From positions 124,001-188,000 of the forward strand of contig JBDOQK010000037.1 of assembly GCA_040437565.1 (NCBI GenBank): a DNA stretch of 64,000 nt. The letters are read 5' to 3'. Positions 18,198-58,900 of this stretch are shown in pieces (position 1 is the stretch's first letter; every line of letters begins with the position of its first letter). The DNA is from Albugo candida. Taxonomy: Eukaryota. Both the position numbers and the translations under genes were made by a program. Under the pieces are notes generated by a model. That model saw only the letters and a program-made list of their open reading frames with translations, was not told the DNA's origin and searched no databases.

Positions 18198-18961
18198 GGA
18201 ACGATGGCAAACGCTGACGAATATTTGACCAAGAAATATGACAAGTGGAAGAATTTTGACGTTTGTACTCTTTGTATCACCGTACGATTCAACTATTCAT
18301 CACGTCAATTCATTAGGAAAATTCTGATTCAGAAGAAGAAATTCCTCGTGTTCCCACACAATTTGATCTCGAAGGAGATGGTATTCATTTCGTGCCTCTG
18401 TTTCCTCATTTTCTCACACCTTATTGTGTAGCGGACATAATTGTGAGCTCCAAACAGTATCTTAAACCGGCCGAAGTCGAAAAAGTGAAGAAATTGAGCC
18501 AAAACAAAAATGAAATCTGGCAAGTTGTCNNNNNNNNNNNNNNNNNNNNNNNNNNNNNNNNNNNNNNNNNNNNNNNNNNNNNNNNNNNNNNNNNNNNNNN
18601 NNNNNNNNNNNNNNNNNNNNNNNNNNNNNGGAACGATGGCAAACGCTGACGAATATTTGACCAAGAAATATGACAAGTGGAAGAATTTTGACGTTTGTAC
18701 TCTTTGTATCACCGTACGATTCAACTATTCATCACGTCAATTCATTAGGAAAATTCTGATTCAGAAGAAGAAATTCCTCGTGTTCCCACACAATTTGATC
18801 TCGAAGGAGATGGTATTCATTTCGTGCCTCTGTTTCCTCATTTTCTCACACCTTATTGTGTAGCGGACATAATTGTGAGCTCCAAACAGTATCTTAAACC
18901 GGCCGAAGTCGAAAAAGTGAAGAAATTGAGCCAAAACAAAAATGAAATCTGGCAAGTTGTC
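18198..18961. repeat. Direct duplication 18198-18529 / 18630-18961 flanking a 100-N gap (likely unmerged contig overlap)
   Basis: Same sequence on both sides of gap 18530-18629, offset 432. Confidence 0.9.
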
Positions 18962-21084: not shown

Positions 21085-24000
21085 ATGACGCAATGTCAAG
21101 TCGAGCATGATACATGCAAAAGCGCTGTAGAGATAGCCTTGAACTGTCAATCAACCTCTTCACCTATTGACCTTCCAAGCACCTCGAGTGTGGCAGAATT
21201 ACCAGTAGAAAATTGTGATGCATCCGACTCGTTTATCAATCAAATACAGAGAGAACTATCGAAACGCAGACCTGACCCATTTGTGCTCTCTGTCCTTTGC
21301 CGCTCCATGTTACTGACAGAAGAAGAGCGTATCGATCAATCTCATAATGAAGCATTCATTCCGGACACTGTACGCCCGCACTTGTGGGCTGCGTTGTTGG
21401 GAGTTCGCATCAAAGAACGAATGTATTTAGATCAGTCCATTGCACAGGTCGAAGAGGATCTCGATAATCAAAAGGTGATCGTCGGGGACGCGACACGCAC
21501 ACGGGCTCAAGACTCTAAATTTCGAGATCCTGGATGCTCCGACACCCTCACTCGAATATTGACTTATTACTGTAAAGCAAAAAGTATCCGATACAAACAA
21601 GGAATGAACGAAGTGCTGGCTCCCTTTATTATGATACAACAACAGTTGAGCCAAATGCAAGCGGATGGTCTTATAAAAGAGTCAGTAGAGAATTCGGAAA
21701 TTTCAATGTCAATTGACGCACAAATGGTTTTTAGTGAGAGTGTGCTGTATCAGTGCTTTTATGCGATGATTGATAAATTCCTACCACACACATTCCAAGA
21801 TGAGGAGTTTTATTCGTTGCAGTGCTCACTCCAGCTGTATCGCCTGTTGTTATTGTACCATGACCCAGAACTCTGCCAGTTCCTGGATCAACATGATATG
21901 AGCCCGGAGATATATCTAACGCCTTGGTTCATGACACTTTTCGCCAGGAATTTGGAACGTCAAATGCTGTTTATATTGTGGGACTTTTTATTGATTCAGA
22001 GTGATCCAGCTCTTCTCCATTTTATAGCAGTCATTTTGGTTTGTGATGCTCGAGAAGACTTGATAAAGACTGATCTTGCGTCATTGCCACAGACACTCAG
22101 TAGCATCAAATTTCGATCGATTCAACATGTGAATTCGGTTTGCTTGCGAGCTAAAGTCTGTATGGACGAAAGAACTCCAATATCATTCAAGACTGAGCTC
22201 AGGAAAGCGTGTTTCAGCCAATCTCAAACACAACCAAGTCTGGGAAGCTACTCATGCGCCACATGTCTTCATGTATCAAGCGACGAGCTTTTGTCGAACT
22301 GGAGCCGTCGATCTTCAAAATCGGGCAGTAAGCTTGAACTCGGGCACATTCTCTCAAGCTCACCGCCAACACAGCTCAATTACGTCGTGTTTGATTGTCG
22401 AAGGTCCGAGCAGTATGAAAAATGTCATTTGTATCTCTCTCACCATATCGACCCCGAAATCGTGTCTGAGCCTGAGCAATTGTCGGCACTTTTGAAAGGA
22501 TTCGATTCCATGAAAGGATGTCATTTTTGCTTTATCGGCCCAATGAAATCAAATACATTCAATGCGAACCCGGAATCCGCTTCCTTTTTCATTCGATCCA
22601 CTGCCGCAAGCATTTCTTCTCGCGTGACATCGTCGATCGCCCGTCTTCGTCCATTACGTCGCGCTTCTCACATTGAGGCCGCGGAATCTTTTCCAGAATT
22701 AGAGGATTTCTCGACTTTCGATGAGGAAGGAAGAAACATCACAGAGATAAACCCAGTTACAAACAATTTCGATTCTGTTCAGCCATCCGACCGCGATTCT
22801 TCCGATAGCCATTCGCTCCACAAAAGTATTGATGCGCCATACTCGGAGCATATCATTGTGATCCGAATCGCACTTATGTTCCTCCAAAAAGGCTTCAAAC
22901 ATGTGAGCATCCTGGAAGGAGGATTCGACGCTTTGAAAACCCGAATTTCATCAATGAACGAGTCTGTTCTCGACCAACTGTTTGTGCATTCGCGGCAGAG
23001 AAATCTCTCAGAGATTTCAAACCTCACGCATATACCTTTGAGCCAAAACGCAATATCTTTTAATAAAGGAAGATCTCAATCGGAAGAATGTCTTGCTCGT
23101 CCTGCTGGAACAAGTGATCAGACAACATCTCCTATGCAACAAAGAGCAGGCCGCAGCCTCCAAAAGCTCACACAAGGCCGTCGTCATGTATCACACGCAT
23201 TAACGCAAGGTTTTCAGCAGTTTACAGCTGCAGCTAAAGATGCCGTTGGAGGGAATCAGAATTTAAAGACACGTCGACACTCAAGCTGGATGCTTTCTAC
23301 CGATTCAACGCTTTTAGGTGGCCTTGAAGCGGCTAAAGGAAGCTTTCGAACGGAAGAGGTTGTATTCCATTCTGGTCCATTGGGCATACTTTTTCAGGCA
23401 TCTCCCGACTCGTGCCAATATCAAGCGATGGTCGACTCTCTCGTGCCTGAAAGTCAGGCGTACGTATCTCAGCAAATTCAAAGCGGGGATGTGCTCATTG
23501 CGGTGAATGGAAAGGATCTGGCTCGACTCACATTTTTTCAGAATGTTGAGAGACTCCGAGAAGCCACACGCCCAATGGTTTTACGATTTCATCGTCCAGT
23601 GAGTAGAGATAACGAACGCCTTAAAACGGAAGGGACGGCAATTCCTTCAATGCTTCCACCGATACTCGTTCGTGCGTCCATGCATTCCTTATCGATCATG
23701 TGGCCCAAAGTGAGTCTTTCTGGCATCCGTTATCAGCTACAATACGCATTCTTCATCGAAGGTGAAGCAATTCCATGGGATTTCGTCAAAGTGAGAGAAA
23801 ATGGAGCTGCGTGTTTGGAAGAGCCCATCACGAGTTTTCTCGCAGAAGCAAGACATCAAGGACTGACTGATAAGAGTTTTGGCACCATAGCTGGTCTACG
23901 ACCTGATCGAAGACTAATTTTCCGCGTTCGTTGTGGTAACTCAAGTTGGGGGTCTTATAGTGCTCCAAGTAATGTAATGCAGACTTTGCTTGGATGCTCT

Positions 24001-26039
24001 GATGAAGGTGTACATGAATCTTTGGACGATCCCACCATAGACATTGGGGAAGACACTCTTGACCCACCAGTAGCCATCTTTATCGCTGGAGAGAATCCCG
24101 ATCTGATCGAGTCGGGTGTATTCTATTTCCGCGTCCTCCGCAGTGTACGAACGCGTACAGCCCCATCACCAACTGCGACCAAATTGGAGCTCGTACTGAA
24201 AGAAGGAAGCATTATCAAGTGCTCGGAACGGTATGTCGCACCTGACACGAGCCAAATATTTGTCAAATTATGGCAAGAAGATCGTTCGTCCGAAGAGCTT
24301 TGTCGATATTCAGAGGACGATACGGGTGCTTGGGCTTTCGAAAATGCTCCTGACGGCACAGTTGTACTCGAAAGACTTGCTGNNNNNNNNNNNNNNNNNN
24401 NNNNNNNNNNNNNNNNNNNNNNNNNNNNNNNNNNNNNNNNNNNNNNNNNNNNNNNNNNNNNNNNNNNNNNNNNNNNNNNNNNGGTCCATTGGGCATACTT
24501 TTTCAGGCATCTCCCGACTCGTGCCAATATCAAGCGATGGTCGACTCTCTCGTGCCTGAAAGTCAGGCGTACGTATCTCAGCAAATTCAAAGCGGGGATG
24601 TGCTCATTGCGGTGAATGGAAAGGATCTGGCTCGACTCACATTTTTTCAGAATGTTGAGAGACTCCGAGAAGCCACACGCCCAATGGTTTTACGATTTCA
24701 TCGTCCAGTGAGTAGAGATAACGAACGCCTTAAAACGGAAGGGACGGCAATTCCTTCAATGCTTCCACCGATACTCGTTCGTGCGTCCATGCATTCCTTA
24801 TCGATCATGTGGCCCAAAGTGAGTCTTTCTGGCATCCGTTATCAGCTACAATACGCATTCTTCATCGAAGGTGAAGCAATTCCATGGGATTTCGTCAAAG
24901 TGAGAGAAAATGGAGCTGCGTGTTTGGAAGAGCCCATCACGAGTTTTCTCGCAGAAGCAAGACATCAAGGACTGACTGATAAGAGTTTTGGCACCATAGC
25001 TGGTCTACGACCTGATCGAAGACTAATTTTCCGCGTTCGTTGTGGTAACTCAAGTTGGGGGTCTTATAGTGCTCCAAGTAATGTAATGCAGACTTTGCTT
25101 GGATGCTCTGATGAAGGTGTACATGAATCTTTGGACGATCCCACCATAGACATTGGGGAAGACACTCTTGACCCACCAGTAGCCATCTTTATCGCTGGAG
25201 AGAATCCCGATCTGATCGAGTCGGGTGTATTCTATTTCCGCGTCCTCCGCAGTGTACGAACGCGTACAGCCCCATCACCAACTGCGACCAAATTGGAGCT
25301 CGTACTGAAAGAAGGAAGCATTATCAAGTGCTCGGAACGGTATGTCGCACCTGACACGAGCCAAATATTTGTCAAATTATGGCAAGAAGATCGTTCGTCC
25401 GAAGAGCTTTGTCGATATTCAGAGGACGATACGGGTGCTTGGGCTTTCGAAAATGCTCCTGACGGCACAGTTGTACTCGAAAGACTTGCTGAGGAAGCAG
25501 CACTAACCAGTGCTTGTGAATTGGAATTCTCCGCCACTATAGGAAATGCAAACTCACAGGCATTTCAGCATCAAGCAAAAGCTCTGGTGACTTCTCTATT
25601 GACCGCCAGTGGATTGAGATCTCCTGCTCGAAAACCGTCCAATGGCTCAGGATCCGATTGCGAGGAATATACGGATCATTCCGAGTCGGAAAAACTGGGA
25701 AGACTGGCTCCACCACGAATACTACAGGTCTTCCCAGTGTCGTCGAGTAGTTTGATTGTGACTTGGGAGCCTACGAACGACATTGGGATCACAATGTATC
25801 AGATTCAGTATGCGAAGAATCGATTGACAGCTTTATGGCGTACAGTGAGAGAAATCATTCCGGCAGACACACTTAAATATCAGATCTCAAATCTGCAGGC
25901 GGGGACTCAGTATACGATTCGTATTCGTGGCGGGAATCGAAATGATTGGGGAATGTATAGCGAGGTGTTTGATGGATGTCGTACAATGTCTTTGGGGGAA
26001 GAGAAGGAGCAAATACATGACGATACATGTGGAGAGTAG
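21085..26039 (+). CDS. Rab-GAP TBC + rhodanese + PDZ + FN3 + SH3-like + FN3 protein (about 1281 aa after collapsing the duplicate)
   Basis: IVGDATRTR, YKQGMNE, LLLYHDPEL, WFMTLF (TBC); VVFDCR..VSILEGGF (rhodanese); GPLGI..IQSGDVLIAVNG (PDZ); two FN3 repeats. Confidence 0.88.
23374..25491. repeat. Direct duplication 23374-24382 / 24483-25491 flanking a 100-N gap
   Basis: Identical translated ORFs, offset 1109. Confidence 0.9.
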
Positions 26040-29936: not shown

Positions 29937-30456
29937 CTACAGATTTTTGCGTAAACGAACCGTAATGTATGAGAGAAAACAGGTAAGCCGACGATGCAGC
30001 CGTTCTTTGCACTTTTGACAGTTGAGATCGGCACCAACGTTGATACGGCTCAAAACGAATCATGTCGGGAGTCATGACATGCAAGTGCTGCTGCTGCATG
30101 AGATATTTGAGATATGCAGAGCGTCATCACACACTTCCTTGCGGAGNNNNNNNNNNNNNNNNNNNNNNNNNNNNNNNNNNNNNNNNNNNNNNNNNNNNNN
30201 NNNNNNNNNNNNNNNNNNNNNNNNNNNNNNNNNNNNNNNNNNNNNNCTACAGATTTTTGCGTAAACGAACCGTAATGTATGAGAGAAAACAGGTAAGCCG
30301 ACGATGCAGCCGTTCTTTGCACTTTTGACAGTTGAGATCGGCACCAACGTTGATACGGCTCAAAACGAATCATGTCGGGAGTCATGACATGCAAGTGCTG
30401 CTGCTGCATGAGATATTTGAGATATGCAGAGCGTCATCACACACTTCCTTGCGGAG
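29937..30456. repeat. Direct duplication 29937-30146 / 30247-30456 flanking a 100-N gap
   Basis: Same sequence, offset 310. Confidence 0.9.
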
Positions 30457-30815
30457 ATACTTATTGTATCGATTGTATACGCCGAAGATGTCGCTTAGGC
30501 CTCGAAAACAGCTCAAATCTCCCTGCCGACTGCTGTAAACGAGAAATTCCCATCGATTATGTTCGGGAAGCTTTAACCTCAATCGAATTCGTAAATTATG
30601 AGCGATTCATAAACGAACGACAGGAAAACTGGAAGACCTCCACCTTGATTTCGGATCAAGAATACAAAAGCATGATCAGTTGTAACGGATGGCGTCAATG
30701 TCCGCGATGCGGTATGGGCGTTGAAAGGATCTCTGGATGTAATCATGTTGTTTGTTTCCACGGTCACGCATTTTGCTACGGTTGCGGAGAGATTAGATGT
30801 CGGTGTTACTATTGA
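30372..30815 (+). CDS. Small RBR-related E3 ligase A (RING1 + Rcat)
   Basis: CCCC..LPCGDTYCIDC..PADCCK; CPRCGMGVERISGCNHVVCFHGHAFCYGC. Confidence 0.8.
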   Translation: MSGVMTCKCCCCMRYLRYAERHHTLPCGDTYCIDCIRRRCRLGLENSSNLPADCCKREIPIDYVREALTSIEFVNYERFINERQENWKTSTLISDQEYKSMISCNGWRQCPRCGMGVERISGCNHVVCFHGHAFCYGCGEIRCRCYY

Positions 30816-32685
30816 TCAGTCACATTTAAGCAAATCCTTCATTGACCTTTGGTCTTTGAGATGAATTCGAGCAACGGATTCGCTTACATTCTACTGTTAA
30901 AAAAACACAAAATTAGGCGAAATGAAGGCGTCACACGTTCGAATTATACTATAACTATAACCATACTATTTCGATAGAAATATTGCGCCGATTGCGATCG
31001 ACATCAAGAGTGAAGATACGTTTTGTGTTGGCACACACACGGGATCTGGCCACACTCATAGCAAAACGCATGACCATAGAAACATCTCACAGACGAACAA
31101 CCGCCTGATTTCTGTACACCCACACCACAGCCTGGACATTGACGCCAACCTCTATCCTTAATTAAAGCTCCGTATTCTATATCGGACACTAAATCTGACT
31201 TTGTCCAGTTGCGATAATGGTCACTCATGTATCGCTGATACGTGTCAAAGTCCTCGGCACTCAGCGCCTCACGAACAAACTCGATAGGAATCTCAGTTTT
31301 ACAACAATGAGCCGGGACTAATGATCGATTGCGTACACCCAAACTACAGAGAACTTGGATACATTTCAAGCAAAACACATGATGGCAGGGTAAGATTCGG
31401 TGATTGATTCCCGCAAGATTTTCTGTGCAGCAGCAGCAAGTCGCCGGAGCTTTTTCTTCCTCCAAAAATACATTGCTCGTTGACTCAAGGTCTATGATAT
31501 CTTCCCTGGATGCACCCATATTGTGGATCTCTGCACTTAGCAAACTCCATGCTATTGCTTCATCAATTGCGCGTTGTTCCATTGAACGAATCTCATCNNN
31601 NNNNNNNNNNNNNNNNNNNNNNNNNNNNNNNNNNNNNNNNNNNNNNNNNNNNNNNNNNNNNNNNNNNNNNNNNNNNNNNNNNNNNNNNNNNNNNNNNTAA
31701 ACGAACGACAGGAAAACTGGAAGACCTCCACCTTGATTTCGGATCAAGAATACAAAAGCATGATCAGTTGTAACGGATGGCGTCAATGTCCGCGATGCGG
31801 TATGGGCGTTGAAAGGATCTCTGGATGTAATCATGTTGTTTGTTTCCACGGTCACGCATTTTGCTACGGTTGCGGAGAGATTAGATGTCGGTGTTACTAT
31901 TGATCAGTCACATTTAAGCAAATCCTTCATTGACCTTTGGTCTTTGAGATGAATTCGAGCAACGGATTCGCTTACATTCTACTGTTAAAAAAACACAAAA
32001 TTAGGCGAAATGAAGGCGTCACACGTTCGAATTATACTATAACTATAACCATACTATTTCGATAGAAATATTGCGCCGATTGCGATCGACATCAAGAGTG
32101 AAGATACGTTTTGTGTTGGCACACACACGGGATCTGGCCACACTCATAGCAAAACGCATGACCATAGAAACATCTCACAGACGAACAACCGCCTGATTTC
32201 TGTACACCCACACCACAGCCTGGACATTGACGCCAACCTCTATCCTTAATTAAAGCTCCGTATTCTATATCGGACACTAAATCTGACTTTGTCCAGTTGC
32301 GATAATGGTCACTCATGTATCGCTGATACGTGTCAAAGTCCTCGGCACTCAGCGCCTCACGAACAAACTCGATAGGAATCTCAGTTTTACAACAATGAGC
32401 CGGGACTAATGATCGATTGCGTACACCCAAACTACAGAGAACTTGGATACATTTCAAGCAAAACACATGATGGCAGGGTAAGATTCGGTGATTGATTCCC
32501 GCAAGATTTTCTGTGCAGCAGCAGCAAGTCGCCGGAGCTTTTTCTTCCTCCAAAAATACATTGCTCGTTGACTCAAGGTCTATGATATCTTCCCTGGATG
32601 CACCCATATTGTGGATCTCTGCACTTAGCAAACTCCATGCTATTGCTTCATCAATTGCGCGTTGTTCCATTGAACGAATCTCATC
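30610..32685. repeat. Direct duplication 30610-31597 / 31698-32685 flanking a 100-N gap
   Basis: Same sequence, offset 1088; creates a false extra partial copy of RBR gene B at 31004-31597. Confidence 0.9.
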
Positions 32686-32868
32686 TCTCTGAGCTTCCAG
32701 AGCGTACACCTGTGACAGCGTGATGCAATCTTGGACACGAGCCATCTCTTCCTCCCCATCTTCCACAACATACGTATGATCACTCACATCAGCCAGATAA
32801 GCGCCATCCTTCACTATGGTTTCCAAGCTCATTGCAATTTCGATTATGAGCACAGAATATTCATCCAA
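32092..32868 (-). CDS. Small RBR-related E3 ligase B (acidic N-terminus + RING1 + Rcat)
   Basis: CCCC..LPCHHVFCLKC..PAHCCK; CPGCGVGVQKSGGCSSVRCFYGHAFCYEC; DEAIAWSL resembles a ubiquitin-binding helix. Confidence 0.82.
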   Translation of the reverse strand: MDEYSVLIIEIAMSLETIVKDGAYLADVSDHTYVVEDGEEEMARVQDCITLSQVYALEAQRDEIRSMEQRAIDEAIAWSLLSAEIHNMGASREDIIDLESTSNVFLEEEKAPATCCCCTENLAGINHRILPCHHVFCLKCIQVLCSLGVRNRSLVPAHCCKTEIPIEFVREALSAEDFDTYQRYMSDHYRNWTKSDLVSDIEYGALIKDRGWRQCPGCGVGVQKSGGCSSVRCFYGHAFCYECGQIPCVCQHKTYLHS

Positions 32869-32929
32869 TTCACAACTGTCATGAAATATTCAGCAATGAA
32901 ATTGATATTAATCTGTATACGATTTAATG

Positions 32930-33481
32930 TCACTCATGTAATATATGCGCTACTTCTTCGTCTGGTATGAGAGCACAATTACAACTACGCCAAGTCGTCA
33001 AACACGTGTAGCAAAATTCGTGACCATTTGGACATCTCATGTGCACGCATCCCCAGTCCCGCTGAATGCCAATTCCGCACCCGGGACACTGTTTGCATTG
33101 AAAAGATCGAACAGTTTTTTTATATTCTTGATCACTCACCAAGTCGGAATATCGCCATTCTCGTTCATGAAGTAATCGCTCGTATTTAGACAAAGCTTTT
33201 TCAACGGATTTCTCGTGTCTTTCGTTGTGACGTGACGTGTATTTGACTGATGCTAATGCTTCTTCAATGTAATCAATTGGAAGCTCCATCTTGCAGCACT
33301 GCACAGGTACTAGCGAACGATCATTCAAAGCGAGTAGTGCCATCCGCTTGATGCATGCGCAGCAGTAATAATGGCCACAGGGTGCAGGTCGTACAGACCG
33401 ACTGACTCCGTAAGTTCCACAGCAGCAGCAACTGCTGTATTCATCCGTGGTCATTTGTATGTATGTCAGCAACTGCCCCAT
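32930..33481 (-). CDS. Small RBR-related E3 ligase C, N-myristoylation candidate
   Basis: First ATG gives MGQLLT; CCCC..APCGHYYCCAC..PVQCCK; CPGCGIGIQRDWGCVHMRCPNGHEFCYTC. Confidence 0.82.
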   Translation of the reverse strand: MGQLLTYIQMTTDEYSSCCCCGTYGVSRSVRPAPCGHYYCCACIKRMALLALNDRSLVPVQCCKMELPIDYIEEALASVKYTSRHNERHEKSVEKALSKYERLLHEREWRYSDLVSDQEYKKTVRSFQCKQCPGCGIGIQRDWGCVHMRCPNGHEFCYTCLTTWRSCNCALIPDEEVAHILHE

Positions 33482-33564: not shown

Positions 33565-35511
33565 TTACTTTTTGCCTTTCTCTTGGTTTTCATTGCGTTG
33601 AAGCGATTGCAGCGCGAGCATTCGCTCCTGCTTTTTGTTTTGTACGCAGAGATCGTCATTGATAGCGGTAAGTTCTGCGACTTTCATCTTGCTGTCAATG
33701 AGCTCACGCTGATAATAATCATTTTCGTCTTCCAATGCATTGAGTCTCGCCATAACGTCGGAATTATCGCTACATTTCGCTTCTGTTTCGGTCGATTGTG
33801 ATTTCGATTCCGTTTTTGCGACAAAAGTCTCATGCTCTGACAGTAATTTTGATCGGTCAGCGTTCATTTTTTGTAATTCGCTTGCTTGTTCATCCAGCAA
33901 TCGTCCCAATGATGCATTCCGAGCTCGTAGAGTCCCGCATTTGAATGCTAAATTCTCTAGTTCTTGTTGAGACATTGCGAGACGATTTGAGAGCGCGGTC
34001 TCGATTTTCTTTTTTTTCTTCTCATTTTTCGATAAAGCTTTCTCCAAGTCACTTGCACGGACTCTCAACGCCTCCGCCTCGAGCTTGAGCGCATCATATT
34101 CACACTTGAGATTATAGTAGCGTTCAGTTGCTTGTATCAAGTCCGACTTGCCGGTAGCAAATTCGCCTGAGAATGCTTCAAGCTGTGCCTCAAGTGCTTC
34201 CATATGCTTTTCTGACTGACTGACCTGGGTGTACGCCTCTGCTTTTTCTTGTTGTAGCTGATGGACTCGATACAGCAGATTTTCATTATCTTCTTTCGAT
34301 ACTTTCAGTTCATGATCGAGATCTCTCAGCTGCTGAAGCAGAGTTTCTTTCTCCTTGTCTGTGAGACTCAGACTTTTTCGAAACCGATCGCAGTCCTCTG
34401 ATAATCTCATCTGTTCCGATCGAGACATGTCTTCGATGCTATCCCGGTGCTTCATAAGGCGTTCCACCTCGAGTTCGAGTTGTTTGACTCGAGATCGTAA
34501 TACGACTTTATCCTTTTCGAGCGAAGTAATAACAGCAACGTGTTCTTGAATGATTTTCTGTGTCGACTCTTTTAATTCCTGCAGCTCTTCGTATCCATTC
34601 GGATCTCGTGCATCGATAAATAAATCGGTCACAGAAGAGCGATCATTCTCTCGTTCCCCCATATCGATTTCTACGAATGTGTCATGTACCTGCTCCTGCT
34701 CATAATAGTCGTCGATCCTTCTATCCTCCGTCTCTTCTTTAGCACGGATTCTTCCACATTCTGATTTCATTTGGCTCAACTCGCTCTTTAATTGTTTGAT
34801 GGTTTGGTCCTTTTGGATATTTATCTGCTGCAAGCGTTCATTCTCCATCTCCTTCTCGCGTAAATCCTCCTTCAACGCTTTGGTATGTTCATCCTCAAAC
34901 CCCACCAGTTTGGAGGCTCGCGACGCGTCTTCTTTCGACGCGATCTGATGTAATCCATTGGGACTTTTACTCGGGCTGTCTGACTTGGAAACAGATTGCT
35001 CACTATGATCAAAATGAGCCTCACCGAGTCTTTCTATTCCATCTTTGTGATCTAATGCCCGACGAAGTGAGACACGAGAGCTAAAGATTGTCAGTGAGAG
35101 AGAAGCCCCTTGATCCTGACATTTCGTCACGGGTATCATAAGACTTTCTTTCGTCGAACTTTTACCATTTTGCACCACTTCTGAAAGATTAAATTGAAAG
35201 GAAGCAACTTGTCGATTCGTATGAGCGTCAAAGATCACCAAGTCAAACATTTTTGCTTGGAACAAGCCCGTCTTGGCCAGATACAATGTGGTCGAAAAAG
35301 GGAAGATGTCACCCCATACGACCTCGCGGGTCGTGTTTTGATACAACGACGATTTACTAACAATTTTTTTCTTCTTGCGTACCAGCATTGCCGTCAATTC
35401 GGCGCCCTGACAAGCGGGTAAAGAAGCTGTCAGACGATGTACAATAAGCTGAATTTGAAAGCCAACTGCCGATTTATTTGCTCGGCCGGTCACTTGTATG
35501 AATCGCTCCAT
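33565..35511 (-). CDS. NT-type C2 domain (EEIG1/EHBP1-like) + long coiled-coil protein
   Basis: N-terminal beta-rich VVWGDIFPFSTTLY..FQAKMFDLVI..FNLSEVV; extensive heptad region. Confidence 0.75.
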   Translation of the reverse strand: MERFIQVTGRANKSAVGFQIQLIVHRLTASLPACQGAELTAMLVRKKKKIVSKSSLYQNTTREVVWGDIFPFSTTLYLAKTGLFQAKMFDLVIFDAHTNRQVASFQFNLSEVVQNGKSSTKESLMIPVTKCQDQGASLSLTIFSSRVSLRRALDHKDGIERLGEAHFDHSEQSVSKSDSPSKSPNGLHQIASKEDASRASKLVGFEDEHTKALKEDLREKEMENERLQQINIQKDQTIKQLKSELSQMKSECGRIRAKEETEDRRIDDYYEQEQVHDTFVEIDMGERENDRSSVTDLFIDARDPNGYEELQELKESTQKIIQEHVAVITSLEKDKVVLRSRVKQLELEVERLMKHRDSIEDMSRSEQMRLSEDCDRFRKSLSLTDKEKETLLQQLRDLDHELKVSKEDNENLLYRVHQLQQEKAEAYTQVSQSEKHMEALEAQLEAFSGEFATGKSDLIQATERYYNLKCEYDALKLEAEALRVRASDLEKALSKNEKKKKKIETALSNRLAMSQQELENLAFKCGTLRARNASLGRLLDEQASELQKMNADRSKLLSEHETFVAKTESKSQSTETEAKCSDNSDVMARLNALEDENDYYQRELIDSKMKVAELTAINDDLCVQNKKQERMLALQSLQRNENQEKGKK

Positions 35512-37930: not shown

Positions 37931-39216
37931 GAGCTCCGATACTCCGAGTGTCTTCAAACCATTCACCGACCGCTCTATGCTATTGCGCCATCCTCCGAAA
38001 AGCTCTGATGAACCCACCAAGCAGTACAATTGCTTTATATTAAGCGATTCAGTCGTCTGTACTTTTCCATGCAAAGGTGATCTCTACCAGCATCGAATAA
38101 AGTACACTCTACGAACGCAGACTTTTACCGAGCATCCAAAAGCACCCAATTATCGATGAAAACCCTTATACATTACGTGTAAAATTCATTGCAATAAAGT
38201 CGTCGCCCGTCTTTGCATCCAAAATTTCCATTTTCAGAGAGTTTTTATAGTTTTCAATCAGAAAGTTCGATGTTTTTTTCTATTCTTTTGAAATTCTTAC
38301 ATTTGTACCTCACCGCATCCATTTCGCATTTTCACCGACCTCAATAATGGCATCGGAATCAGACCTTTCCAAATCGCTCGAACACACGAAGCCTCTCATA
38401 GAAGACAGTTCATCGACGGTATCGATGGAAACTCCAGCCAATGCTGAATTCTCACCTTTCCAAGATACGTATCTGGAAGGCTCAGAATCGGTCCAAAGCT
38501 CACATCCGTTAGAAGGAATCCAANNNNNNNNNNNNNNNNNNNNNNNNNNNNNNNNNNNNNNNNNNNNNNNNNNNNNNNNNNNNNNNNNNNNNNNNNNNNN
38601 NNNNNNNNNNNNNNNNNNNNNNNGAGCTCCGATACTCCGAGTGTCTTCAAACCATTCACCGACCGCTCTATGCTATTGCGCCATCCTCCGAAAAGCTCTG
38701 ATGAACCCACCAAGCAGTACAATTGCTTTATATTAAGCGATTCAGTCGTCTGTACTTTTCCATGCAAAGGTGATCTCTACCAGCATCGAATAAAGTACAC
38801 TCTACGAACGCAGACTTTTACCGAGCATCCAAAAGCACCCAATTATCGATGAAAACCCTTATACATTACGTGTAAAATTCATTGCAATAAAGTCGTCGCC
38901 CGTCTTTGCATCCAAAATTTCCATTTTCAGAGAGTTTTTATAGTTTTCAATCAGAAAGTTCGATGTTTTTTTCTATTCTTTTGAAATTCTTACATTTGTA
39001 CCTCACCGCATCCATTTCGCATTTTCACCGACCTCAATAATGGCATCGGAATCAGACCTTTCCAAATCGCTCGAACACACGAAGCCTCTCATAGAAGACA
39101 GTTCATCGACGGTATCGATGGAAACTCCAGCCAATGCTGAATTCTCACCTTTCCAAGATACGTATCTGGAAGGCTCAGAATCGGTCCAAAGCTCACATCC
39201 GTTAGAAGGAATCCAA
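37931..39216. repeat. Direct duplication 37931-38523 / 38624-39216 flanking a 100-N gap
   Basis: Same sequence, offset 693. Confidence 0.9.
39012..39026 (+). promoter_or_regulatory. Oomycete INR+FPR-like core promoter
   Basis: CCATTTCGCATTTTC fits YCAYTYY followed by the WTTT FPR element, 13 nt upstream of ATG 39040. Confidence 0.55.
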
Positions 39217-55900: not shown

Positions 55901-58900
55901 AAGACACCACAATTCGAAGACGCCATTTTGAAGCGGAGTTCCGGTCATCAGAAGACATGCGTCCCATGTGAAGTGCATCAGTGATTGTAAAAGCTTTGTT
56001 TCGCGGTTTTTCAGCTTATGTGCCTCATCGATCACCAAATAGCGCCAGTGAATGCATTCAAGAAACTCGGCATCGGCCATAAGCGTCTGATACGAAGTCA
56101 CCAGCACATTGAATTTATAGATACCACGACGACGAAACATATCCGATTGCTTGTAGTAGAATTCTTGCTCTCGGATGAATGAGCGAATCTCACTTCCGCC
56201 TTCGGAATCATGATACACCACGCAATTCATGGTCGTCCACGTCTCAATTTCGCGCTTCCAATTGCCCAATGTCGCCAAAGGCGCAATCACCAAAAAAGGC
56301 CCTCGAATATGCTCTTGCTGGCGTAAATGCTCCATGATCGATGTCGCTTGTACAGTTTTCCCAAGACCCATTTCATCCGCAAGGATACAATTCCGACGAT
56401 TATACCAGCAAAATACCAGCCAATTCAAGCCTTCCAACTGATACGAACGCAATTTGTTTTGATTGTTGTATACGGGCGATTCCTGGTACTTGGCCCATGT
56501 CGTCGGGTCCGGTCGTGTGTCTGAGAACATTGCTGGATTCGCACCATTTACGATCGGCGGATGATTGAAACGATGATACGCGGCAATCTTTCGGTCATCG
56601 GTGAGGTCGTCTTCCCATTCCCACGAGCAATCGACGTAGCTGAGATCCCGCCACTTGACCAGATACTTGACGCCTTTCTTCATTTTGATAGAAGGTTGTA
56701 CATCCGCATCGATATTGGAAGTGCCGTCAAGATCATTCATTGTCTTGGAGACTTCCATCATCAAGCGCCATAGACGGAATGGACTCATTTTCACTGCTTC
56801 TTCGACTTCTTTCGCGTCGAGAATACGATCAATTTCAGTGAACGATTCGCTAAAGTGGATGGTATTGTCTTTCCCGGCAATCACTGGATTCTCTCGAGCT
56901 ATCTCGACTTCACGACCGTGTTTTCGAAGGTGTCGACGCATTCGCATGATTGCATGATGTCCAAAAGCTTCGATATCGGCGACACGAAGCCAATCGACAT
57001 GCATATACGACGTATCCTTCCATTTGATCAGAAACTCCATTACGGCTTCCGGTGAGTCCATTTGATCTTTCACAAATCGAACGCTAACGATTCTGTCCAT
57101 TAGCGGTCCTTTACGATCATCTTCTTCAGCGCTTTCTTTACCAGCTCCATGCATGCGTTTCTTCTTCTTCTCTTCGCCACTCACTTCGATATCGGATTCC
57201 ATCTCTTTCTCCGCGTAATTCATCTTCGCTTTGCCAGCATTCCGACCGGATCGCCGCTTTGGTATCGCGTCTACAGCGAATTTCAGCGAAGAACCTTCCT
57301 CTCGACCTGATTCATCATCATCCGACTCACTCAATCGCTTTTTTCGAGACTTTCCTCGACCTCCAAAACCGCTTTTTCGTCCACGCTTAGCAGCTGCTTT
57401 CGATAAAATCGGTTCAGGTGCGAATTTTCGCTTCCGTTTGCGTTGATCCTCTGTATCCTGAACGAGATGATTATGCTCATTTGAACGCAATGCTTTCGCT
57501 AGCATTCCACTGGGAATCGTTCCGTCGGAAGCTGTGAATTTGAAAAGCATTATCTGAGCCCGAAGCTGATCTTTCTGATCGAGTGTGAAAAGAGCCCGAA
57601 CGCGAGGACGTGGTGCTCTTTGCATTACATTTGGATCAGGTACCACCGCACTGGGTCCCTGACTGGATGGAGGACCATTATCCGCATGCCCCGTCACTGT
57701 GCCTGCGGGATGCATATAATTCATCACATTGGAACCGTAGACGCGATGAATGTACTGATTGTACGCAAGTGCAGCTTCTCTTTCTGAGCGATACATTCCC
57801 AATCGACGGACACCACTTCCATCGACATGGAGTTCTGCCGCCCATTCATTCCGTCCAATATGTCGCACACCCATATGCCAAATGCCGCGAGTGAATAGCT
57901 CAGGATTGTCCAGACCTGCAATCGATGTGTGCTGCCCATACTCATGCATCATATTGTCGCTCACTTGTGAGTGCGCTGACCAATTGAGTCGACGGAATCG
58001 CAGTAATACGGGACGCAATGATTTCAATCTTCCGACAACTTTGGTGAAATCATCGGCTTTCAAGATCTTATACCCATCCACTGCGACCAATTCATCTCCA
58101 ATTTCAATCTTCCCACTGGCTTCAGCCGGTCCGATAATGCCTTCCGCTGGACGGCGAAAGCATGTGACGGTCACACGACTCATACAGATGTTCATGTTCA
58201 TGCACAAGCCTACTGAGCCTTTATGCAGAAGGATCTCATACTCGTTCGGTGTTTCAGGAGAAAACCACGTCAACGATTTCGCTGGTGCTGAAAGCACTCC
58301 ACGAAGCATGTCGACAGCTAATGCAGCTGTCTGAGATGACGTTACGATCTGTTTGCTGATAGACACGAGAGTCGACAACGCTCGGTGATCAGCAAAGTGA
58401 TACACCATTTCATTCACTTTGCGTGGACGTAGCGAATGTGGAGCAAACACGAACGGCTTTACCATTGCTTCTTGATTACCTGAGGATTCCTGCATGAAAG
58501 ATGTGAGTGTATGAATTACGCGAAAATGGAGCTGCGTGTACCTGCGGTTGGCTGTATGGAATGCTTGGAGCGGGCTGAGATGTGTTTTGGTTCGGTATGG
58601 AAGGTAATGGTTCAGCGGTGTTGCGAGATGGATCGTACATTCCATTCGAGACGTTACCTTGATGGTTCATATGCGATTGGATCAATGGAGGCGCGTCTTG
58701 AGAAGGATTGTAGAACGATGGGGCATTCCTTTGATTCTCAAACATGCGACTCGTATCCATATTTCTCATCGGCACTTGTGAGAATTGAACTGTGTTCATA
58801 GGCGCATACGTTGTCGGTGGTTGAGAAGGATGGTAGAATTCTTTGTGGTGATGCAAGGGTGCTTCCTGAGGTGCTGATCGTGCAGTGTAGTGCGAGCCGT

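Follow-up and report, generated by a model that had tools for sequence, protein, structure and literature searches.

Can a RING1-IBR-RING2 (RBR) ubiquitin ligase do without its central IBR domain? The question is raised by three neighbouring genes, designated A, B and C, in a 64,000-nt stretch of the Albugo candida genome (assembly GCA_040437565.1, contig JBDOQK010000037.1, positions 124,001–188,000 of the forward strand), which is referred to below as the window and to which all coordinates refer. The RBR signature is given in PMC2904391 as C3HC4-C6HC-C3HC4; the three Albugo proteins have the first and the last of these fingers, RING1 and the catalytic RING2 (Rcat), without the middle one. 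We consider it probable that all three are genuine genes of Albugo and belong to an RBR clade, uncharacterised so far, from which the IBR has been cleanly lost, and that they encode minimal ligases passing ubiquitin from a ubiquitin-conjugating enzyme (E2) to a Cys and on to substrate. Sequence and modelled fold support this finding solidly; the function is entirely our inference from them.

Two zinc fingers joined without an IBR

Gene A (30372..30815, + strand) encodes 147 amino acids (aa), the entire protein consisting of RING1, two helices and Rcat. Gene B (32092..32832, − strand, 246 aa) places an acidic N-terminal extension before its RING1, linker and Rcat, and gene C (32930..33481, − strand, 183 aa) has RING1, linker and Rcat. 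All three are intronless ATG-to-stop open reading frames (ORFs), intact and unbroken from RING1 to Rcat. The original prediction, made from the letters of the window, had described three intronless paralogs of 147, 258 and 183 aa; the three intact genes and the lengths of A and C were borne out, and B was corrected to 246 aa, no longer ATG-initiated frame for it existing in the sequence. The proteins are similar to one another (E 1e-31 to 1e-45, 39–50% identity, tblastn within the window), and the same search detected no further sequence resembling them elsewhere in the 64 kb.

An IBR has about seven Cys and one His. From the C-C that ends RING1 to the first Rcat Cys there are 54 residues in A, 54 in B and 68 in C, with one, no and one Cys, respectively; linkers of this length and composition therefore hold no IBR. 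Separate IBR and Rcat hidden Markov models (HMMs) were built from 43 IBR-bearing relatives, and with the IBR HMM no part of A, B or C scored above 2.1 bits (A at most 1.2 bits; B negative). In the alignment with relatives, RING1, the post-RING1 helix, the pre-Rcat helix and Rcat are homologous on either side of a gap of ~60 columns lying exactly at the IBR. The earlier claim that there is no room for an IBR thus agrees with linker length, HMM score and alignment alike. The linker of A (30537..30698, + strand, residues 56–109) was modelled as helices 61–67, 70–89 and 93–104; it contains a single Cys (C104) and the motif WKTSTLISDQEY, which reads WTKSDLVSDIEY in B and WRYSDLVSDQEY in C. The C linker includes an Albugo-specific insert of 16 residues (70–85).

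The first finger resembles RBR RING1

The first finger follows a common pattern in A, B and C: C-x2-C ... P-C-x-H/D-x2-C-x2-C ... P-x2-C-C-K. It spans 30390..30536 (+ strand) in A (C7/C9-C12...PC27-G-D29..C32..C35...P51..C54-C55-K), 32389..32526 (− strand) in B (C103-106...PC120-H-H122..C125..C128...P144..C147-C148-K) and 33293..33430 (− strand) in C (C18-21...PC35-G-H37..C40..C43...P59..C62-C63-K). The closing P-x-x-C-C lies at 30522–30536 in A, 32389–32403 in B and 33293–33307 in C; neither IBR-less nor IBR-bearing relatives have a conserved eighth ligand. RING1 opens with CCCC in all three (30396–30407, 32515–32526 and 33419–33430), most relatives having C-[VI]-[SA]-C.

From 53 family sequences, AlphaFold2 gave a model of A with a mean predicted local distance difference test score (pLDDT) of 92.2, consisting of a RING, the three linker helices and a small beta-rich finger. 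Residues 4–87 of this model matched the RING1 of RNF216 together with the helix after it (Z 10.3, root-mean-square deviation (rmsd) 2.0, 81 residues aligned), and the corresponding part of other RBR ligases with Z of 10.0 (RNF144A), 9.0 (HOIP), 8.8 (parkin) and 8.7 (ARIH2). A scan of 48,161 representative chains, made independently of Foldseek, had RBRs in all of its best 11 rows, and ordinary RINGs reached Z of 6.2 at most. When an AlphaFold2 model of C (pLDDT 73) was searched with Foldseek, RBR ligases filled 43/43 rows listed (RNF216, HHARI, parkin, ARIH2, HOIP, HOIL-1). ESM Atlas neighbours were 'RBR/IBR-like', plus one unnamed 195-aa eukaryote cluster. By motif in all three proteins, and by model in A and C, the first finger is assigned as an RBR RING1, as had been predicted at the outset, with its following helix.

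The second finger scores as Rcat and keeps the candidate catalytic cysteine

The second finger, with the pattern CP.C...GC(NH/SS/VH)..C..GH.FC..C....C.C, was located at 30699..30806 in A (+ strand, C110–C145), 32119..32226 in B (− strand, C203–C238) and 32975..33088 in C (− strand, C132–C169). The Rcat HMM scored 45.6 bits in C, 40.1 in A and 31.1 in B, so that the HMMER check proposed with the original prediction classes this finger as Rcat and not IBR. With phmmer, C matched RING2 of parkin, RING2 of HHARI (1wd2, 2m9y) and ARIH2 283–332 among PDB sequences; in the IBR-RING2 construct 2m48, the RING2 half matched C with 22.8 bits and the IBR half with 13.2 bits. Residues 91–147 of the A model matched the helix-RING2 of HOIL-1 (Z 4.8) and of RNF216 (Z 3.7, 29% identity). 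No Pfam match of the Rcat_RNF216 type was detected in A, B or C at E<=10. The Rcat tail is W-x-x-C-x-C in C, and A and B keep C-x-C without the W. We conclude, on HMM scores and database matches, that the second finger of all three proteins is an Rcat and not an IBR.

The catalytic loops differ as originally read from the translations. The candidate catalytic residue is Cys123 in A (30738–30740), in a G-C-N-H loop; Cys145 in C (33047–33049), in G-C-V-H; and Cys216 in B (32185–32187), in G-C-S-S, where the His at Cys+2 is lost. The position was counted in the three Albugo proteins and 155 relatives, 158 sequences in all, of which 146 had an Rcat-HMM domain covering it. This residue, which is not a zinc ligand, was Cys in 148/148 Rcat domains.

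The IBR is missing throughout a family of relatives

A profile made from A, B, C and six relatives was searched against 1.84 billion representatives and gave 5776 matching proteins at E<=1e-3; 675 remained at E<=1e-10, and 47 did so at E<=1e-30. The matches listed from this search, together with those of one other search, made up the 155 relatives examined. Their linkers, measured from P..CC to Rcat, were bimodal in length: 70 modules had 47–65 residues with 0–3 Cys, and 47 had 96–176 residues, 46 of these 47 with 6–9 Cys. Counted by protein, 69 of the 155 had an IBR-less module and 46 an IBR module; the rest were nine with an Rcat and no recognisable P..CC, one intermediate, and 30 fitting neither pattern, many of them short or without a complete Rcat. 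The IBR-bearing P..CC members were the next-best profile matches. Absence of the IBR is thus, as far as these sequences go, a trait of the family, not local to Albugo.

Named IBR-less members from oomycetes belonged to Albugo, Phytophthora kernoviae, P. capsici, P. ramorum, Pythium brassicae and Peronosclerospora sorghi; those from chytrids to Gorgonomyces, Obelidium, Zopfochytrium, Dinochytrium and Chytriomyces; and others to Mortierella alpina and M. antarctica. Named IBR-bearing relatives were Dikarya fungi. The minimal two-domain family anticipated from the window, for which a census across oomycetes had been proposed, is therefore present in oomycetes but not confined to them.

Several relatives have further domains. 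The C orthologs P0003–P0007 and P0010 (Phytophthora/Pythium) carry an extra C3HC4 RING-like domain and a helix before the P..CC RING1, which Albugo C is without. Ten oomycete-type proteins of 445–588 aa (P0011–P0019 and P0021) have three successive RING1-like P..CC modules, with an Rcat after the last alone, and these Rcat domains have no His at Cys+2 (GCNT, GCNA, GCAS and others); we know of no described RBR with this triple-RING1, single-Rcat architecture. A fusion to CBS domains is seen in P0056, a 749-aa protein of the chytrid Gorgonomyces haynaldii. Common to P0023, P0037, P0044, P0067, P0108 and P0146 is a C-terminal extension containing a conserved H..H.W motif and one more Cys-rich finger, found in IBR-less and IBR-bearing members.

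Age of the cluster

Relationships were estimated with a quick, unrooted maximum-likelihood tree of the RING1 and Rcat columns only (106 rows, 140 columns). Left out were P0001, P0002 and P0020, as near-identical to the window proteins; modules whose P..CC is preceded by under 35 residues; and proteins in which the regex defined no module. All oomycete-type sequences fell in one clade of 27 rows with a Shimodaira-Hasegawa-like approximate likelihood ratio test (SH-aLRT) value of 96. Within the tree A and B were sisters (SH-aLRT 84), and C grouped with the Phytophthora and Pythium proteins P0003–P0010. B and C each have orthologs in Phytophthora, Pythium and Peronosclerospora. In the Peronosclerospora model P0008 a C-like 3' part runs straight into a B-like gene, and in Pythium brassicae the locus tags 011312 (C-like) and 011313 (B-like end) are consecutive. 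By orthology and adjacency the B/C cluster is thus judged to be old; a local duplication in Albugo is suggested by the A/B split alone. The notion of a family expanded locally accordingly holds for the A/B pair and fails for B and C, each of which has orthologs in other oomycetes, where the two types adjoin as well.

Accessory motifs of B and C

The consensus of the ubiquitin-interacting motif (UIM) is an acidic run followed by hydrophobic-x-x-Ala-x-x-x-Ser-x-x-acidic. In the N-terminal extension of B, residues 54–72 (32617..32673, − strand; SMEQRAIDEAIAWSLLSAE) form a UIM-like helix with the core I-D-E-A-I-A-W-S. At the same aligned place the core reads L-D-E-A-V-A-L-S in P0024 (Phytophthora ramorum), L-D-K-A-M-A-M-S in P0008 (Peronosclerospora sorghi) and L-D-E-A-I-A-L-S in P0009 (Pythium brassicae), making four, B included, of the six B-type sequences examined with such a core; P0028 and P0029 are without it. 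The acidic run before the core of B is weak, and no Pfam UIM match was detected in B at E<=10. The ubiquitin-binding helix suspected earlier in the acidic extension is thus present as a UIM-like motif, kept in most of these six sequences, and may supply ubiquitin binding.

The N-terminus of C, MGQLLTY (33461..33481, − strand), is also found in P0001 and P0002 and fits the myristoylation consensus M-G-x-x-x-S/T, as had been pointed out. The A. laibachii protein P0168 has a different N-terminus, with an internal Met aligned to Met10 of C; the motif is therefore not conserved there and carries little weight.

The locus and its assembly artefacts

A and B are convergent with 188 bp between them, and C and then B lie on the same strand with 97 bp between. 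C starts 83 bp past the stop of the upstream NT-C2 coiled-coil gene, which leaves no space for hidden upstream exons. The 648-aa product of this upstream gene (33565–35511, − strand) has its NT-C2 domain (Pfam E 1e-11) at the N-terminus, followed by a long tail that is charged and apparently coiled-coil. The neighbours are ordinary housekeeping genes, among them those for the NT-C2 coiled-coil protein, 6-phosphogluconate dehydrogenase and a protein with a fibronectin type III (fn3) domain; neither an E2 nor a ubiquitin gene is among them, and they show no functional link.

Two scaffold gaps of 100 N lie in the interval. The first (30147..30246) is flanked by 210 bp that are 100% identical on both sides (29937–30146 = 30247–30456), an artefactual copy of the 5' end of A. 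The second (31598..31697) is flanked by 988 bp, again 100% identical (30610–31597 = 31698–32685), giving artefactual copies of the 3' half of A and of residues 50–246 of B. Such duplicate flanks were present at 7 of the 9 gaps in the window and explain all seven internal repeats found by blastn. Because the flanks are identical, the partial ORFs 30062–30146, 31004–31597 and 31698–31903 are assembly artefacts, that is, unmerged contig overlaps. The locus has three genes; a second A start, a second A tail and a second B body are not genes. Across the window the gaps with duplicate flanks are those at 18530, 24383, 30147, 31598, 38524, 59085 and 61057, with exact duplicates of 66–1009 bp (for example 23374–24382 = 24483–25491 and 58347–59084 = 59185–59922). 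ORFs crossing gaps are partly artefactual owing to this duplication: 21085–24615 with 24537–26039, 58476–59483 with 59314–61014, and 38347–38736.

Public records agree with the gene models. At 90% identity, A falls in one cluster with CCI49171.1 of Albugo candida (147 aa, 'RING-type domain-containing protein'). The exact sequence of B is on record at NCBI, and its cluster includes A. candida CCI49170.1 (246 aa, two residues different), which bears the same name. C has relatives at 97% identity (P0001, P0002) and clusters with Albugo laibachii CCA16377.1 (196 aa, 'conserved hypothetical protein'). Contigs of four public runs are colinear with the window, without joints; one contig (run X3, 32039–32894) spans the B ORF, which is a weak hint of expression at most, the RNA label of these runs being a guess; stretches left uncovered in X3, X4 and X5 carry no meaning. 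Logan versions of A (P0020, P0159, P0161) are longer, 189–201 aa. P0020 reads W at the TGA stop of A in the window and runs on, which is a gene-calling artefact and does not make A longer.

Proposed mechanism

Features of RBR transthiolation described in PMC9834252 include binding of E2 by RING1, binding of donor ubiquitin by the IBR-RING2 helix together with RING2, and alignment of the E2 and E3 cysteines; the same source presents the RING1-IBR interface as a conserved allosteric ubiquitin site. Each of the three proteins has a RING1-helix joined by a short turn to a helix-plus-Rcat module, and A, in its 147 residues, has nothing else. We propose that RING1 would dock E2~ubiquitin, that the conserved pre-Rcat helix (S-D-x-E-Y..V) and Rcat would hold the donor ubiquitin, and that ubiquitin would pass to the invariant non-ligand Cys (C123 in A, C145 in C) as a thioester and from there to substrate. 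Because the three proteins keep the E2- and donor-binding elements and the RING1-IBR helix without the IBR strand, they may be read as RING1-Rcat cysteine-relay ligases without the canonical allosteric switch. Since the strand that completes the allosteric ubiquitin site is missing, they should lack feed-forward control or be constitutively competent.

Several observations count against this proposal. In solved transthiolation complexes the IBR belongs to the stretch by which RING2 is brought to the active site of the E2, a task that in A, B and C would fall, in cis, to two helices. Placement of one finger relative to the other in the models is not validated (predicted template modelling scores, pTM, of 0.64 and 0.68). 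RING1 has just seven obvious zinc ligands, with a vicinal C-C end and no conserved eighth Cys or His, and in A Asp29 occupies the usual position of a His ligand. Pfam IBR_1 matched A (20.8 bits) and C (24.6 bits) below its curated cut-off of 27, and no Pfam match of the IBR type was detected in B at E<=10. His at Cys+2 was found in 113/148 Rcat domains and was absent from 35/148, including B with its GCSS loop. As for a single origin, the tree suggests mainly one loss of the IBR: a branch whose SH-aLRT of 85 is not strong has 61 of the 63 IBR-less modules to one side of it; the exceptions, P0074 and P0130, are IBR-less yet sit among IBR forms. Named records of family members are all 'hypothetical', 'unnamed' or 'RING-type domain-containing'.

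Loss of the His was more frequent in IBR-less modules (19/70) than in IBR-bearing ones (4/46), and the Peronosclerospora ortholog of B keeps G-C-N-H. The equivalent His of parkin, H433, is reported in PMC3709503 to be needed both for activity of the protein in cells and, at neutral pH, for its reactivity towards a probe, and the motif is described there as not conserved across all RBRs. His-less members probably have altered or reduced chemistry, and B itself is probably an enzyme that is slow or altered in its chemistry, or else a partner with a regulatory role.

Alternative readings

A bolder proposal than ours is that these proteins form a distinct, old class of minimal 'RING1-helix-helix-Rcat' cysteine-relay ligases common to oomycetes, chytrids and Mortierella, in which the IBR is dispensable for RBR chemistry and has a regulatory role only; the oomycete variants (UIM-fronted, triple-RING1, His-less) may then use a different acceptor chemistry or act as heteromers in trans, A pairing with B for instance. 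We put this forward tentatively, as a possibility with somewhat less than even chances.

Next in standing, though unlikely, is that A, B and C are ordinary RING E3s or adaptors, in which RING1 by itself activates E2~Ub or does no more than bind an E2, and the second finger is a structural or substrate-binding zinc knuckle whose Cys forms no thioester, His-less members such as B being pseudo-ligases or regulators. The missing His, the loss of the IBR along with the allosteric site and part of the spacer, the sub-threshold Pfam scores and the oomycete relatives with three RING1-like modules before one His-less Rcat would all be understandable on this account. Against it stand the non-ligand Cys, present without exception in the 148 domains counted, the retention of its G-C context and of the full Rcat ligand pattern, and a RING1 structurally nearest to the RING1s of RBRs, not to ordinary RINGs.

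It is very improbable, and largely refuted, that the genes are fragments, pseudogenes or misassembled canonical RBR genes whose IBR disappeared through assembly or unrecognised splicing. The two gaps with duplicated flanks give this idea its foothold, but in the full copies neither gap separates the two fingers, each frame runs on without a break from RING1 to Rcat, exact or near-exact proteins occur in independent assemblies, the contigs of the four runs show no joints, and 70 modules from a wide range of organisms and assemblies have the same kind of short, Cys-poor linker. Scarcely any probability attaches to the second finger being a benign, non-catalytic IBR in RING1-IBR proteins minus Rcat, which is refuted at the sequence level: Pfam does name its matches 'IBR_1 / IBR domain', but those models match RING2 too (two stretches in each of four IBR-bearing relatives scanned; one stretch or none, always on Rcat, in the IBR-less relatives scanned), the IBR HMM falls far below the Rcat HMM, the best PDB matches are RING2/Rcat domains, and the G-C-x-H loop and W..C.C tail are Rcat features common to IBR-bearing relatives.

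This conserved natural family, with RING1, both linker helices and Rcat but no IBR, offers a ready test of the role of the IBR, and structural and mechanistic studies gain in A a scaffold of 147 residues. Its patchy range across oomycetes, chytrids and Mortierella raises the question of ancient origin versus gene transfer; being unrooted, the tree does not settle one loss versus gain, or the direction of transfer. Standard annotation passes over these proteins, given sub-threshold Pfam scores and names such as 'RING-type domain-containing' and 'hypothetical', so that censuses of RBR ligases in oomycetes and early-diverging fungi are incomplete.

Comparison with known ligases

No description of a naturally IBR-less RBR ligase, from oomycetes or elsewhere, was found in the full-text literature, most subscription journals being outside our reach. 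Among ligases working by cysteine relay, the RCR ligase MYCBP2 (6t7f) is, like A, a RING-linked E3 without an IBR, and it was a weak structural match (Z 4.3, rmsd 8.2). As a relative it was ruled out: its tandem-cysteine domain is unrelated, with no sequence similarity to Rcat.

Parkin, HHARI/ARIH1, ARIH2, HOIP and HOIL-1 share with A the RING1 fold and helix (Z 8.2–9.0), and with all three proteins the Rcat pattern and catalytic Cys, with His at +2 as in A and C. Unlike the Albugo proteins, they have an IBR and autoinhibitory or accessory domains, and are 3 to 7 times the length of A. Human RNF216/TRIAD3 (8eb0, 7m4m, 7m4n) gave the best match to RING1 and helix of A and the top Foldseek match to the model of C. 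According to PMC9834252, RNF216 and HOIL-1 carry a ubiquitin-binding helix N-terminal to RING1, which in RNF216 is a predicted MIU and may be compared with the UIM-like helix of B. RNF216 differs from A, B and C in that it has an IBR, its RING1-IBR carries an allosteric site for K63-diubiquitin, and its protein context is much larger.

Closest of all is an unnamed fungal subfamily of RBRs with a P..CC RING1, represented by records from Periconia macrospinosa, Lentithecium fluviatile, Parastagonospora nodorum and Hysterangium stoloniferum (P0187–P0190, P0095, P0113, P0108, P0146) and annotated as 'RBR-type E3 ubiquitin transferase' or 'hypothetical protein'. These proteins share with A, B and C the P..CC end of RING1, the post-RING1 and pre-Rcat helices and the Rcat, with G-C-x-H as in A and C and a W..C.C tail as in C, and some have the same C-terminal zinc-finger extension as members of the IBR-less family. 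They differ in a C6HC IBR of ~50 residues with 7–8 Cys, placed between the two helices. The shared sequence features place A, B and C by descent within the RBR superfamily, nearest to this fungal subfamily; lacking the IBR, one of the defining RBR features, they are a variant of the RBR design and not ordinary members.

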